From Chiloscyllium plagiosum (taxonomy: Eukaryota), in assembly GCF_004010195.1 (NCBI RefSeq), contig NC_057717.1:103387025-103451024 (forward strand): a stretch of DNA of 64,000 bases. The letters are read 5' to 3'. The notes under the pieces are model-generated. The model saw nothing but the letters and a program-made list of their open reading frames with translations. It did not search any database and was not told the origin of the DNA. Made by a program: the position numbers and the translations under genes. Each line of letters begins with the position of its first letter. The stretch's first letter is position 1. Shown piece by piece: positions 6,170 to 63,700 of this stretch.

Positions 6170-6381
6170 CTGAAAATGTGTTGCTGGAAAAGCGCAGGTC
6201 AGGCAGCATCCAAGGAGCAAGAGAATTGACGTTTCGGGCATGAGCCCTTCTTCATTCCTGAAGAAAGACTCATGCCCGAAACGTCGATTCTCCTGCTCCT
6301 TGGATGCTGCCTGACCTTCTGCGCTTTTCCAGCAACACATTTTCAGCTCTGATCTTCAGCATCTGCAGTCCTCACTTTCTC
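6170..6381. mobile_element. Penelope-like terminal-repeat fold-back insert (family A) with hammerhead remnants
   Basis: Inverted arms about 6170-6254 and 6259-6347; exact 16-bp TSD ccaggaataataagaa at 6154-6169 and 6382-6397. Confidence 0.85.
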
Positions 6382-6453
6382 CCAGGAATAATAAGAAGGC
6401 TGTTACCTCCTGCTAATGTTGCTGTGTTCACACTGTTCTATTTGTCTTTTTAG

Positions 6454-7131
6454 TTGTGGTACATGGATGGATACCTGAATGGTCGGACCGTGCGCGAGTT
6501 CCGCTCCTTCAACGACTTTGTCAAGGGAGAGAAGTTTGTGATCTACCGCCTGCCCCACCCTTGGGCAGGCACGGGCCACGTGGTCTTCAACGGCTCACTG
6601 TACTACAACAAGTACCAGAGCAACATCGTCATCAAGTACCACTTCCGGTCGCGCAGCGTCCTGGTGCAGCGGAGCCTGGACGGAGCCGGCTACAACAACA
6701 CCTACCCTTACTCCTGGGGCGGCTTCTCCGACATTGACCTGATGGTGGACGAGAGCGGCCTGTGGGCCGTCTACACCACCAACCAGAACGCGGGCAACAT
6801 CGTCATCAGCCGGCTGGACTCCCAGACGCTGGAGATCCTCCAGAGCTGGGACACGGGCTACCCCAAGCGGAGCGCTGGGGAGTCGTTTGTGATCTGCGGC
6901 ACGCTCTACGTCACAAACTCCCATCTCGCTGGCGCCAAGATTTATTTTGCCTATTACACTAATACGTCAAGCTATGAGTACACTGATATTCCATTTCACA
7001 ACCAGTACTCACACATATCCATGCTGGACTACAACCCTAGAGACCGGGTTCTTTATACGTGGAATAACGGTCACCAGGTCCTCTACAATGTCACCCTTTT
7101 CCACGTTGTAAAGACATCAGGCGAGCTGTAA
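6454..7131 (+). CDS. OLFM2: Olfactomedin-2 terminal coding exon (bulk of the OLF beta-propeller)
   Basis: Polypyrimidine tract plus tag acceptor (6451-6453). LWYMDGY...[15 protein letters not shown]...WGGFSD...NSHLAGAK...[26 protein letters not shown]; these residues match recalled OLFM2 better than OLFM1 or OLFM3. Stop TAA at 7129-7131. The ORF-track 'M' is a TTG Leu. Confidence 0.95.
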
Positions 7132-7241
7132 TGTCGTGATTGGACACTCCTTTTTACATTTAAGCATACCGATACTTATAAAAGAGGAAACAACAGACTG
7201 TTCAGTGTGAGTGCGCATGGTTTCTTTTTGTGTTACCGAAC

Positions 7242-7247
7242 AATAAA
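7242..7247 (+). promoter_or_regulatory. Candidate OLFM2 polyadenylation signal
   Basis: AATAAA 110 nt after the stop, followed by U/GU-rich sequence. Confidence 0.55.
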
Positions 7248-7564
7248 GTTTAACTTTGAAATGGACAAATTAGTTGGTGTCTCATGGATGCTCTCAGTTA
7301 AAGGGACAGCCAGTTGCAAGTGTGATTGATATAAACACAGAGAATGCTGGGGAAACTCAGCACGTCTGCGCAGAGAGCAGCAGAGTTAACGTTTTGAGCC
7401 CAGTGTGTAGGACAGGGCAAAACAGAAAGTACATTGGAAAAATCACCATTGTTAGGTGGCACTGAAGCTTCAGTCTCATATTGTTGATTGAGCTCAATAT
7501 TATTTAAATCAGAAAAGACTGCAGAACGCTGCAGTATAGAAGGACTTGGTGGCCCTTAGATATT

Positions 7565-7770
7565 GAGCCATACAACCCAGAAACAGATCCTTCAGTCCAT
7601 GCCAAACAGTTTTCTTAAACTGAACTAGTCGCATTTGCCTGTGTTTGGCCCATATTAAACCTTCCCTATTCATGTACCTGCCCAAATGTTTTGAAGTGTT
7701 GTAATTGTACCAGCACTTCCACGTCCTCGGGCAGTTCGATCTGTACACACACTACCAATGTACAAAAAGC
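7565..7770 (-). mobile_element. CR1 LINE 3' end
   Basis: Reverse complement of the CR1 tail (ccttccctattcatgtac...gtaccagc). Confidence 0.8.
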
Positions 7771-8269
7771 TAGCCCATTCAGTGGACAGCAGGGAAGGTA
7801 AATGGAATGTGGGCCTTTATTTCAAAGGGAATTGAGCAGGCATTTATATGGAACGTGTGAGTAAAGGCAAGGCCCCTGTGGATACCGAAAATAGAAATTG
7901 CTGGAGAAACTCCGGCAGCATCTGTGGAGAGAGAAACTGAGTTAACGTTTCAAGTCTGGTATGACTCTTTAGACTCCTCACAGGGAATATCTGTTCATCC
8001 AAACAGTCATATAATCTCAAATGCATAGAAAGGAAATTATGCTAGAGGACCTTTCTCTTATGTTGCCTTGTACATTGGTTTCAACATTTTCATAGTGACT
8101 TTGTTGACCCGATGGAGGTTTTTAAAATTTGACAGAGTTAGAAAAGGGCTCTTCATTTGCGAGGGAATCTGAAATTCTGGTAATCATTGTAAGATGGTCA
8201 GTAATGAATCCAGCAGGGAATCCGAGAGATCTGCTATAGCAAGGATGCTGTGAAGCTTGAAAGCTTTGT

Positions 8270-8581
8270 GGGCGGCACGGTGGCACAGTGGTTAGCACTG
8301 CTGCCTCACAGCACCTGAGACCCGGGTCCAATTCCCGCCTCAGGCGACCCACTGTGTGGAGTTTGCACGTTCTCCCCGTGTCTGCGTGGGTTTCCTCCGG
8401 GTGCTCCGGTTTCCTCCCACAGTCCAAAGATGTGCAGGTCAGGTGAATTGGCCATGCTAAATTGTCCATAGTGTTAGGTAAGGGGTAAATGTAGGGGTAT
8501 GGGTAGGTTGCGCTTCGGCGGGTCGGTGTGGACTTGTTGGGCCGAAGGGCCTGTTTCCACACTGTAATGTAATCTAATCTA
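8270..8581 (+). mobile_element. HE1-type V-SINE, full length
   Basis: tRNA head gggcggcacggtggcacagtggttagcactg with B-box-like ggtccaattccc; V-domain gtgtggagtttgcacgttctccccgtg; (aatct)n tail. Confidence 0.92.
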
Positions 8582-8590
8582 AAAAAAAAA

Positions 8591-61325: not shown

Positions 61326-61421
61326 TGCAAGCTTGGGGGATACCTAGCCCTGCTAGTTTCTTTTTATTTCAAATATATACTTTACTCATAAAAATATCTT
61401 TCTATATCTCCGTAGTCACTA

Positions 61422-61628
61422 AGTTAAAAATCACACAACACCAAGTTAGAGTCCAACAGGTTTATTGGGAAGCACTAGCTTTTGGAGCGCTGCTCCTTCG
61501 TCAGGTGGTTGTCAGGAGCAAGCGTTCTAAAAGCTAGCGCTTCCAAATAAACTTGTTGGACTGTAACATGGTGCTGTTGATTTTTAACTTTGTACACCCC
61601 AGTCCAATACCGACACCTCCAAATCATA
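61422..61628. mobile_element. PLE family C fold-back insert
   Basis: gttaaaaatca...tgatttttaac inverted ends; core ctgacga..aaaag cta on minus; flanking gtcacta repeat. Confidence 0.8.
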
Positions 61629-61657
61629 CATGGTCACTAGCGCAGTTCTGCTCTGGA

Positions 61658-62000
61658 TGTAGGTTTGCTCGCTGAGCTGGAAGGTTCTGAGCTGAGCTGA
61701 GGGTCTAGAAGCATGGCACTCCAACCAGAACTCTATCAACAAACACATTGGCTTGGATCCCATTTATCACCCCCGAGAAAAAGAACAGGAAATGACATCA
61801 CCATACGAAATGGCATCACCAACCCAAGGAAACCCAAACGTATAAATAGAAAGCGGGCTACACCCACCAGTGCTTCATCCAGAGGCTCACTGAAGATGTT
61901 ACCCAGTATGGTGACAAAACATCTGGAAACAAACCTTCCAGCTCAGCGAGCAAACCTACAACCAGAACTTCAACCTGAGCTACAAATCTCAAAACTCACT
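61658..62000 (+). mobile_element. Penelope/Poseidon-type 3' end (family D) with an inverted 5' stub
   Basis: LEAWHSNQNSINKHIGLDPIYHP from 61705 resembles a GIY-YIG C-terminus. Hammerhead remnant at 61888-61925. 29-bp inverted repeat at 61658-61686 and 61932-61960. Confidence 0.82.
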
Positions 62001-62807
62001 CGCAGATCAATTCTGTGCAGCAGCATATAAAGAAACAAACCTTAGAGTTTGACTCTAGCCAGCAAACCAACCCAAGGCATTTCTTACTTGTACAAGACTA
62101 TATTTATATATATTTGAGGTACCAGGAGGGTCCAATAACTGGACCCCCATTTACCTTCAGCAGAAAGATCTCAGATGATGATCTTTCTCCAGGCTAGTTT
62201 GCAAAGATATCAACAGCATGAGTTCAATTCCTACACCAGCTGAGGCTACCATGATGGTCCCTCCTTTGAACCTCACCTGAGGCTTAGTGACCCTCAGGTT
62301 AAGCCATCTTTTTTTTCTATGGAGAGAGTAGCCCGATGTTGACTTCATCTTTAACTCTACATCGTTCTCTTTGCTGCATCTCCCCAACAACTTCCTAGGT
62401 TTCTTTCAGAGAGCAGTTAATTTATTTTAGCTCCACAAATGATCAATGGTGCAATGCTGGTAATGGGATAATCGATTGCTGCTCCCTCTCTCCTGACTGT
62501 CACTTATTAAACACCTGAACAAAAGGGGGAATTCTCCCCAAGAAGAACACAAAACCAAAACTCCATTGTATCGATTGCACGTATTCCACTCTGCGCATCA
62601 GGTTCTGTCAACAGTGTGAGGAAATCTTCCAGATTTATACACAGTTAATCTTCATCAGACTGGAACCAGCAAATACTTCACAGTGAAATGGTTTCCAACA
62701 CCAAAGGTCCAACAATAAAAAAAAATAAATCGGTTTCGAACAAGTGTGCATGAAATCTAATTCAAACTGTGATACAGTGGCAGTGTTCCTACTCTGGACT
62801 AGAGACA

Positions 62808-62915
62808 ATCTGCCTCTATTCCTGATGAAGGGCTTTTGCCCAAAACATTGATTTTCCTTCTCCTTGGATGCTGCCTGAACTGCTGTGCTTTTCCAGCACC
62901 ACTCTGATCTAGAAC
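62808..62915 (+). mobile_element. PLE family A terminal repeat
   Basis: ttcctgatgaagggcttttgcccaaaacattg; flanking ctagagaca repeat. Confidence 0.8.
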
Positions 62916-62933
62916 CTAGAGACACTTGAGTTG

Positions 62934-63267
62934 AGCGGCACGGTGACTCAGTGGTTAGCACTGCTACCTCCATCACCAGGGGCGAGGGTTCGATTCCAAC
63001 CTCTGTGTGGAGTTTGCACATTCTCCCCATGTCTGTGTGGGTTTCCTTTGGGTGCTCTAGTTTCTCCCCACAGTCTGAAGATGTGCAGGTTAGGTGGATC
63101 GGCTGTGCTAAATTGCCTGTAGTGTCCAGGGATGTGAAGGCTAGGTAGGTTAGCCATGGGAATGCAGGGTTACAAGGATAGAGTGGCGGAAGTGGTTCTA
63201 GGTGGGATTCTCTTCAAAGGGTTGGTATGAGCTGAATGGCTTGCTTCCACACTGTAGGGATTCTATG
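62934..63267 (+). mobile_element. HE1-type V-SINE
   Basis: Head gcggcacggtgactcagtggttagcactg; V-domain; about 2 copies of the 42-bp-like unit. Confidence 0.88.
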
Positions 63268-63479
63268 AAATGCCACTTGCTTCAGGGTATATAATAATAT
63301 TGCTGAAGAGGTTGAGCATAAGAATGTTTCAAACGTCAGTTATAGGTATCAAGAAGACAAAGCATAATGTTCTCTCACACTTAGTCTGACAACACATTTG
63401 ATTTGCTTAAGTAACCAGCTTTCTCCAAATCTTTGTTTACAACAAAAATACAATTGAGCTCCATAATGTAAAGTAAAGA

Positions 63480-63700
63480 GAGAAATTGCTGGTGAAACTG
63501 AGTATATCTGGCAGCATCTGTGGAGAGGGAAACAGAGTTAACGTTTCTGAAGAAGAATTGTTTTGGACTCAACTGTTTCTTTTTCCACAGATGAAAAAGA
63601 AACAGTTGAGTCCAAAACAATTCTTCTTCAGAAACGTTAACTCTGTTTCCCTCTCCACAGATGCTGCCAGACCAGCAGAGTTTCTCCAGCACTTTCTGCT
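63480..63700. mobile_element. PLE family B fold-back with 79-bp perfect arms
   Basis: 63507-63585 is the exact reverse complement of 63593-63671. Confidence 0.85.

Follow-up and report, generated by a model that had tools for sequence, protein, structure and literature searches.

Hammerhead units in the Chiloscyllium plagiosum window

The DNA analyzed here, called the window throughout, is a stretch of 64,000 nt from the genome of the shark Chiloscyllium plagiosum (GCF_004010195.1, NC_057717.1:103,387,025–103,451,024, forward strand) with 62,667 non-N bases and runs of N at 10394–10909 (516 nt), 23032–23145 (114 nt) and 29894–30596 (703 nt). It harbors numerous short insertions in which the core of a minimal hammerhead ribozyme is followed by a tail of 60–100 nt, and these units are very probably the 3'-terminal modules of Penelope-like elements (PLEs) that were inserted many times into the shark genome and are now mostly decaying. 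All copy counts, family consensuses and links to open reading frames (ORFs) refer to this single window. Profile searches with nhmmer (E ≤ 1e-3) detected 40 non-overlapping copies, 13 of family A, 19 of family B and 8 of family C, and family D is represented by one copy. The density is approximately one copy per 1.6 kb of non-N sequence. Since the profiles were built from five (A), four (B) and five (C) copies of the window, 14 of the 40 copies match by construction. The families are:

Family A: unit of about 128 nt with a tail of about 98 nt; best copies 94–97% identical; two core subtypes, CUGAAGA and CUGAUGA
Family B: unit of about 113 nt; copies 82–84% identical; several stem II subtypes
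Family C: unit of about 88 nt, optionally extended by a tail of about 35 nt; copies 78–88% identical; no cross-matches with A or B
Family D: singleton with no second copy in the window by self-comparison; joined to an ORF remnant

An earlier reading of the sequence, the original prediction, had proposed more than 20 inserts in four families with dissimilar flanks and had quoted one motif for each family. All four motifs were recovered at their coordinates and on their strands, and the number of inserts was surpassed. The separation of C was likewise borne out, but the A and B profiles match each other's copies (A on B down to E 7.9e-13, B on A down to E 4.8e-10) and D is a single copy. Because their tails are homologous and their profiles cross-match, A and B are, by sequence comparison, one superfamily. 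None of the 14 TRF rows of the window overlaps a unit, hence no tandem arrays of units were detected, and the sole same-strand neighbors are two decayed B copies 18 nt apart. The copies are listed below; target site duplications (TSDs) and the long and short forms of the 3' end are described further down, and positions within the motif follow hammerhead numbering.

6163–6254, minus: A, left pair arm (nhmmer E 2e-26), short-form 3' end, C3 absent at the junction
6256–6383, plus: A, right pair arm (nhmmer E 6e-43), full length with long-form tail, core intact, stem II decayed
6154 and 6382: 16-bp TSD enclosing both arms of the 6163/6256 pair
7331–7405, minus: B, hammerhead region lost
7886–7969, minus: B, stem II subtype GAGUC/GACUU
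9292–9375, minus, and 9387–9451, plus: B head-to-head pair, sub-threshold Rfam hairpin matches at 9312–9430
10987–11110, plus: A, CUGAUGA subtype, hammerhead and tail, 3' of an ORF remnant
17222–17315, minus: A, short-form end, 9-bp TSD, one stem II mismatch
18796–18881, minus: A, deletion of the 3' half of stem II and GAAACG
22249–22339, plus: B, 5'-truncated
28337–28422, minus: C, CUGANGA box lost
29089–29182, minus: B, the copy quoted originally, core and GAAA intact, G to A at 16.2
29353–29452, plus: A, 5'-truncated within the core, short-form 3' end, 15-bp TSD
34352–34439, plus: C, 13-bp TSD abutting 3 nt before CUGA, G12 to A
36573–36652, minus: A, the copy quoted originally, hammerhead intact
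37592–37695, minus, and 37700–37810, plus: B head-to-head pair, both arms reach the hammerhead and both are decayed, Rfam hairpin match
38005–38118, plus: B, U3/A8 in place of C3/G8
41394–41522, minus, long form, and 41525–41609, plus, short form: A head-to-head pair within a 12-bp TSD
42945–43035, minus: C, the copy quoted originally, hammerhead intact, short-form end
43036–43111, plus: C, inverted 5'-truncated arm with extra tail, abutting the intact C copy; 43046–43111 matches 61561–61625 at 89%
43160–43243, plus: C, decayed
44520–44633, minus, and 44620–44718, plus: B head-to-head pair, Rfam hairpin match
51196–51323, minus: A, full unit with intact hammerhead, followed by 7 nt of filler and an inverted tail fragment of 20–24 nt up to 51353; 15-bp TSD
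56159–56277, minus: A, 5'-truncated at stem II
58965–59092, minus: A, full unit, hammerhead intact, 8-bp TSD abutting the first base
59344–59444, minus: B, U4 to A
60826–60912, plus: B, decayed
61092–61192 and 61210–61324, both minus: the two decayed B copies 18 nt apart
61422–61509, minus, short form, G12 to A, and 61514–61625, plus, with extra tail: C head-to-head pair
61652–61686, minus: inverted 35-nt copy of the D tail on the 5' side of D, 97% inverted match to 61932–61966
61888–61966, plus: D, hammerhead (61888–61925) and tail, A at position 12, CA at 15.2/16.2
62820–62922, plus: A, CUGAUGA subtype, starts 12 nt before the hammerhead, 9-bp TSD, G12 to A, CG to CA
63475–63713: B pair with 5'-truncated arms forming a near-perfect hairpin, sub-threshold microRNA (miRNA)-like Rfam matches

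The ribozyme motif

In every family, the units start 2–6 nt before C3 and the motif runs in the order CUGANGA, one unpaired base, a stem II of 4–6 bp, GAAA, two self-complementary bases, U and H. The unpaired base between A9 and 10.1 is present in all four families, as A in A, B and C and as U in D. Stem II is formed by GGGC/GCCC in A, GGGUC/GACCU or GAGUC/GACUU in B, GGAGC/GCUCC in C and GUUACC/GGUGAC in D. Across 26 copies, the pair 10.1/11.1 is G-C in 16, G-U in 8 and mismatched in 2, and when the families are compared, between three and six standard pair types occur at each of the positions 10.2–10.4. Judged by these pair-type counts, stem II covaries between families, as had been claimed: it differs while its pairing is kept. 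The differences within families appear to be mostly pair-breaking decay.

Positions 15.2/16.2 are self-complementary, CG in A and B and GC in C, while D carries a CG decayed to CA. Positions 15.1–16.1 accordingly read ACGU in A and B, AGCU in C and ACAU, by CpG decay, in D, and there is no helix III loop. The quoted B motif exists, but has CA at this place where other B copies have CG. Since helix III is nothing but the palindrome ACGU or AGCU, a lone motif would be unable to fold and two copies would have to pair. When the least-decayed copy of each family is compared to the required core, no differences are found in A and C, one in B and two in D, all of them at CpG. The unpaired base, G10.1-C11.1 and the palindromic 15.2/16.2 correspond to features 2–4 listed for PLE minimal hammerheads in the available text of Cervera and de la Pena (2014; PMC4209133), and being unforced, they support a motif of the PLE type. 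On sequence grounds, the motifs are predicted ribozymes, namely dimer-type minimal hammerheads of PLE terminal regions that lack helix III, in agreement with the original prediction of minimal hammerheads that work as dimers.

The motifs are genuine and far more frequent than expected by chance. The loose pattern CTGANGA-N9–35-GAAA matched 19 times, compared to 6.64 ± 2.48 matches in 100 shuffles (maximum 12; no shuffle reached 19). A strict minimal-hammerhead descriptor, in which the core, GAAA and UH had to be present, stem II had to measure 3 bp or more and 15.2 had to be complementary to 16.2, found four sites, compared to 0.04 ± 0.20 in 300 dinucleotide shuffles (maximum 1).

Two copies have peculiarities of their own. 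Beside the intact A copy ending at 36652, about nine bases at 36653–36662 (minus) complement the start of the tail, which would extend helix I to about 9 bp. The bases upstream of this copy are common to no other copy and the extension is unique to it; it could be due to chance, filler or a template switch. The stem aatc/gatt, which had been taken as helix I of family A, consequently holds for the 36652 copy alone, and the other two intact A copies leave 2 bp, the sequence upstream being target DNA or filler. In the B copy 38005–38118 (plus), U3/A8 replace C3/G8 and stem II, GAAA and CG are intact. The same natural variant is known in PLE hammerheads of Schistosoma; as this is a single copy, two chance transitions are possible as well.

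State of the copies

The hammerhead region is reached at 35 sites. Four are intact (A 36652, 51323 and 59092; C 43035; all on the minus strand), 28 are damaged by core substitutions, a broken stem II or loss of the palindrome, and in three the motif is lost. It is therefore not the case that all inserts share the motif, as had been stated. The very high density of ribozyme cassettes predicted earlier, roughly one per 3 kb, is exceeded by the copies as such, but these are mostly dead relics and intact hammerheads occur approximately once per 16 kb.

The commonest single defect, found at 11 of the 35 sites, is a G to A change at G12 or 16.2 (A 29347, 41522, 41520 and 62820; B 29182, 44633 and 60824; C 34351, 61510 and 61501; D). 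Because G12 and 16.2 are the G of the CpGs C11.1-G12 and C15.2-G16.2, the ribozyme core appears to hold its own decay hot spots in a methylated genome. The pattern suggests that the core CpGs are lost first after insertion and that the copies evolve neutrally. Both G to A differences marked in D by the original prediction are of the CpG type. In P0009, a distant protein, the frame continues across a D-type motif, and this part aligns with the translated sequence of the window (E 4e-5); at the Lys-His of D it has Lys-Arg, consistent with CGU in the relative versus CAU in the window.

Structure of the insertions

Exact flanking direct repeats were sought at 30 insertions and measured 9–16 bp at seven, 8 bp at three and only 7 bp at five, and none was found at 15. 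By our own estimate, chance matches within the search windows are expected at about 1.5% for a 9-mer, 6% for an 8-mer and 23% for a 7-mer. As shorter matches are expected too often by chance, only repeats of at least 9 bp are regarded as firm TSDs. Truncation at the 5' end is frequent (e.g. 29353 and 56159).

Nine head-to-head pairs are present (6163/6256, 9292/9387, 37592/37700, 41394/41525, 42945/43036, 44520/44620, 51196/51330, 61422/61514 and 63475/63628). In all ten cases, these and the D element, the minus copy lies to the left of the plus copy, so that the ribozyme-bearing ends are turned inward and the tails outward, and there is no tail-to-tail arrangement. Three A pairs, one of them with an inverted fragment, each lie within a single TSD of 16, 12 or 15 bp. 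Since one TSD encloses both arms, each of these pairs represents one event. In all three, the long 3' end is confined to one arm, its partner stopping about 30 nt short of it, and the C pairs are equally asymmetric with an extra tail of about 35 nt on one arm. The anatomy is that of PLE insertions, with a variable TSD, 5' truncation, an inverted 5'-truncated neighbor and a tail at one end.

The homology between units ends sharply 2–6 nt before the ribozyme. The 40 nt upstream of 23 copies gave mean local alignment scores of 6.9, 6.4 and 5.6, compared to 5.6, 5.9 and 5.6 for shuffled sequence, and the first 40 nt of the units reached 26.8, 14.6 and 19.6. Exceptions are the inverted arms and three weakly similar flanks at 10987, 18881 and 62820. 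In two solo copies, 58965–59092 and 34352–34439, the TSD touches the unit boundary. Random 5' truncation would not produce such a sharp boundary.

The head-to-head pairs form long, nearly perfect hairpins, and several of them resemble miRNA precursors. Of 17 Rfam matches obtained at E ≤ 10, 11 are miRNA-like or hairpin models that sit on inverted pairs, the best miRNA-like one being MIR4240 with 70.6 bits against a gathering score of 200. Sub-threshold matches to miRNA precursors were drawn by the pairs at 6226–6283, 9312–9430, 37646–37754, 44579–44664 and 63475–63713 (Rfam matches at 63506–63674). From their sequence, head-to-head PLE pairs are likely to be mistaken for miRNA genes, or they might possibly give rise to hairpin small RNAs.

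Some neighboring features deserve mention. An olfactomedin-like (OLF) open frame, which is probably a terminal exon, is located at 6454–7128 (plus; Pfam E 9.3e-80), and the palindromic A insertion with its sense-oriented right arm ends about 55–70 nt upstream of it. Beside the A copy at 62820 lies, at approximately 62930–63130 (plus), a copy of a repeat with a tRNA-like head and about ten copies, the commonest other repeat in the window, which we take to be probably a short interspersed element (SINE). The minisatellites at 1413–3152 (37 nt x 47), 14807–16492 (24 nt x 71) and 39023–39894 (42 nt x 21) contain no hammerhead unit, and a degenerate interstitial telomere-like array of the CTAACC type occupies 32474–32865 (62 copies, 67% match).

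Links to Penelope-like reading frames

Two ORF remnants of the PLE type adjoin units of families A and D:

10154–10393, plus: PLE ORF remnant, linker between reverse transcriptase (RT) and GIY-YIG, ended by the run of N at 10394–10909
61696–61842, plus: remnant of the C-terminal end of a PLE GIY-YIG endonuclease domain, belonging to D (phmmer, BLASTP)

The first remnant is 85–86% identical to three proteins of Chiloscyllium punctatum, all of which match RVT_1, P0005 weakly (16.4 bits, cut-off 29.6). P0005 has a GIY-YIG match just below the Pfam cut-off (21.7 versus 22.6 bits) and a zinc-finger-like CX2C stretch. The A module at 10987–11110 (plus) follows downstream on the same strand, and the run of N covers the expected position of GIY-YIG in the A-linked ORF. 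The second remnant matches the very end of the GIY-YIG domains of five library proteins (phmmer E 3e-7 to 5.4e-4; BLASTP E 5e-9), in P0009 directly after a weak GIY-YIG match, and the D hammerhead lies about 120 nt downstream of it. The proposed attachment of A and D to PLE ORF remnants is thereby supported, for A as a probable continuity across the 516 N.

Neither of the two remnants gave a Pfam match of its own, and a word-index search for proteins similar to the D remnant was likewise negative. When this remnant was compared with the A-type protein P0005 by BLASTP, no similarity was detected, so that A and D either belong to different PLE lineages or are too short for comparison. Family B is tied to PLEs via the homology of its tail to that of the ORF-linked A; for this reason it does not need an unrelated, unseen parent. 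The original prediction had suggested that B and C may be non-autonomous elements whose PLE parent is not visible in the sequence. The A tail was also considered as the start of a PLE ORF. This was rejected: the ATG-led frame is open in A copies with CUGAAGA, but the CUGAUGA subtype and one B copy run into a stop after 14–16 codons, and the 40-aa translation of the A-tail frame matched nothing in a protein search.

Origin of the units

Our preferred explanation, with high though not full confidence, is that the units are terminal PLE modules that spread by target-primed reverse transcription, which would account for both the TSDs and the 5' truncation. The PLE RT would start copying at the end of the tail, and two motifs may pair through the palindrome to give two active sites, as is known from other PLEs. 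By analogy with the PAc enzyme of Anolis, both cut DNA ends may have primed cDNA in many events. Such double-ended priming would lead to head-to-head pairs with outward tails and to an optional extension of about 30 nt on one arm only. After insertion, the copies would have evolved neutrally with loss of the core CpGs first.

Several observations weigh against this explanation. An Rfam scan of the window gave no match of any family at the gathering score, and among the 17 matches at E ≤ 10 no hammerhead family was present. Rfam hammerhead models represent canonical forms, in which helix III and contacts between loops are present. Intact sites are few (4 of 35), and the nearest two intact copies on the same strand are 7.8 kb apart. 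Helix I within the element comprises 2–3 bp (UC/GA in A, GUU/AAC in B, CAC/GUG in C and CA/UG in D). Monomers fold no more stably than shuffled sequences (z +0.65 and -0.33) and the centroid retains only the stem II hairpin; in these folding models, this fits a motif that would be inactive alone, but it proves nothing, and the thermodynamics of whole units is uninformative. The 516 N separate the A-linked ORF remnant from its hammerhead, hence their continuity is deduced rather than seen. No ORFs for B or C are visible in the window, and the only other RT fragment, at 42055–42417 (minus; RVT_1, E 4.4e-12) has no similarity to the A-type PLE protein. Finally, according to the available text on the Anolis PLE, the hammerhead is dispensable for insertion in vitro, where catalytic mutants leave insertion unaffected, it is cleaved only in the presence of protein, and no in vivo reads start or end at the cut site (PMC11167929).

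The RT fragment was tried and rejected as parent of C, because it is not similar to the PLE protein and has a generic RVT_1 match only. Its spacing from the C unit appears unlike the layout of a pseudo-long terminal repeat (pLTR) and ORF. The FADD-type motif of the fragment looks, as we would assume, like that of a long interspersed element (LINE).

The findings on Anolis equally raise the question whether the hammerhead-like sequence is kept as part of an RNA site that is bound and copied by the PLE protein, without self-cleavage in vivo. This is also suggested by the short helix I of the shark copies, by the low in vitro cleavage of metazoan PLE hammerheads, even as dimers (PMC4209133, as far as available), and by Naiad PLEs, which thrive without hammerheads according to the accessible parts of PMC8557442. 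However, independent families keep the catalytic core, G10.1-C11.1 and the palindrome while stem II changes, which is not obviously needed for protein binding alone, and rescue by C3/G8 identified the Anolis motif as a genuine ribozyme (available text of PMC11167929). We consider a mere binding site unlikely. An origin of the motifs by chance, or from a SINE family that has no connection to PLEs, would agree with the missing Rfam hammerhead match and with B and C being without an ORF in the window. This is highly improbable and disfavored by the strict descriptor (four sites versus 0.04 expected), by the PLE-type ORF remnants adjoining A and D, by the PLE-specific insertion architecture and by the homology of the B tail to the A tail.

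The sharp 5' boundary leaves two readings. The template RNA may have had its 5' end there, for example by run-off from a 5'-proximal tail of the element's own transcript, or the units may be discrete non-autonomous passengers. In the latter case, the 90–130 nt units would be full-length non-autonomous retroposons, minimal relatives of animal retrozymes or of SINE-like hammerhead elements, which consist of a ribozyme and an RT recognition tail and are mobilized in trans by PLEs; we regard this as a tentative possibility. The homology that stops 2–6 nt before CUGA with 23 upstream flanks like shuffled controls, the TSDs abutting the boundary at 58965–59092 and 34352–34439, and the arms of inverted pairs, which often both reach the exact boundary, are consistent with such units, and a recent preprint puts forward, in its available text, that the retrozymes of animals are non-autonomous and derive from PLEs (10.64898/2026.07.22.740005). 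In contrast, the A-type module continues upstream at 10987, towards the ORF remnant, and by 12 nt at 62820, indicating that it is also part of longer elements. No tandem arrays were detected among the TRF rows, and the sharp end is equally well explained by the 5' end of a PLE transcript with RT starting at a 5'-proximal tail. A circular template was rejected, since it predicts an extension of the tail upstream of the hammerhead in short-form copies, which the TSD-bounded copies 17222–17315 and 62820–62922 lack. It is conceivable, albeit less than probable, that the unit generally is a discrete retroposed molecule with its 5' end at the first base of the ribozyme, either the smallest non-autonomous PLE passenger (about 90–130 nt) or a run-off cDNA from a 5'-proximal mRNA tail. 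If this were true, the TSD-bounded palindromes would be an in vivo record of double-ended priming, which so far was observed only in vitro with the Anolis enzyme.

With terminal PLE modules as the preferred explanation, the window extends the link between PLEs and minimal hammerheads to a shark with a very high local density of about 40 relics in 64 kb. It also provides a natural data set, in which core CpGs appear to be lost first in a methylated vertebrate genome, a single insertion can form a palindrome with unequal tails, as expected from two-strand priming of the Anolis type, and the long hairpins of such palindromes can pass for miRNA precursors when RNA families are searched. These findings leave the current view of PLEs unchanged.

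Comparison with known systems

Minimal hammerheads of PLEs were described as massive and widespread in metazoan genomes, including those of fishes, coelacanth, amphibians and reptiles (Cervera and de la Pena, 2014; PMC4209133, available text). The phenomenon is thus already published for other animals, and what is added here are its shark members. Our literature search found no description of PLE hammerheads in sharks, and a 2026 preprint sampled, in its available part, one chondrichthyan for retrozymes (Li et al., 10.64898/2026.07.22.740005). The shark motifs share with those of PMC4209133 the CUGANGA...GAAA...UH core, the unpaired base, G10.1-C11.1 and the palindrome in place of helix III. 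In both cases, several consensus families occur per genome, mostly as solo motifs from truncated PLEs, and pairs on opposite strands are found, which lie 100–700 bp apart in the published genomes. Helix I measures 2–3 bp in the shark, compared to 4–5 bp in Schistosoma and 2 bp in Drosophila virilis, and stem II 4–6 bp compared to 7–8 bp in Schistosoma, according to the same available text. In other PLEs, motif dimers are active, but cleavage is slow in vitro and may need the protein of the element (PMC4209133 and PMC11167929, as far as available).

A mechanistic parallel is offered by the Poseidon-type element PAc from Anolis carolinensis. Its protein cuts either DNA strand and can extend both, and it begins to reverse-transcribe the RNA at two internal positions, which mark the limits of the tail and lie approximately 85–92 nt past the hammerhead cut (available text of PMC11167929). 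Similarly, the shark hammerhead is followed by about 90–100 nt up to the 3' end of the insertion, insertions stop at one or the other of two 3' positions separated by about 30 nt, corresponding to the 'tail', and priming on both strands would fit the head-to-head pairs. In contrast to PAc, where the ORF starts inside the hammerhead, the A-tail frame of the shark is closed in the CUGAUGA subtype and in B, and the hammerhead is found at most a few hundred nt downstream of the end of an ORF, a layout unlike that described for PAc (PMC11167929, available text).

PLE insertions in general are heavily truncated at the 5' end and have on this side a second, inverted copy that is itself 5'-truncated, while a tail of 30–40 bp is present at one end only (PMC8557442, accessible parts). 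The shark insertions have the same architecture, including the hammerhead near the 3' end, but most events are tiny (90–250 bp) in comparison to the insertions described there, and as a consequence the inverted and the main copy are similar in size and form hairpin-like palindromes. With the non-LTR retrozymes of animals, the shark units share a type-I hammerhead, a short palindromic helix III and a proposed origin from PLEs (PMC7229834 and 10.64898/2026.07.22.740005, available texts). Head-to-tail repeats that each carry a hammerhead, by which retrozymes are recognized, were not found among the units in the TRF rows of the window. Whereas retrozymes form head-to-tail arrays and circular RNAs in the available description (PMC7229834), the shark units are dispersed, either solo or as inverted pairs.

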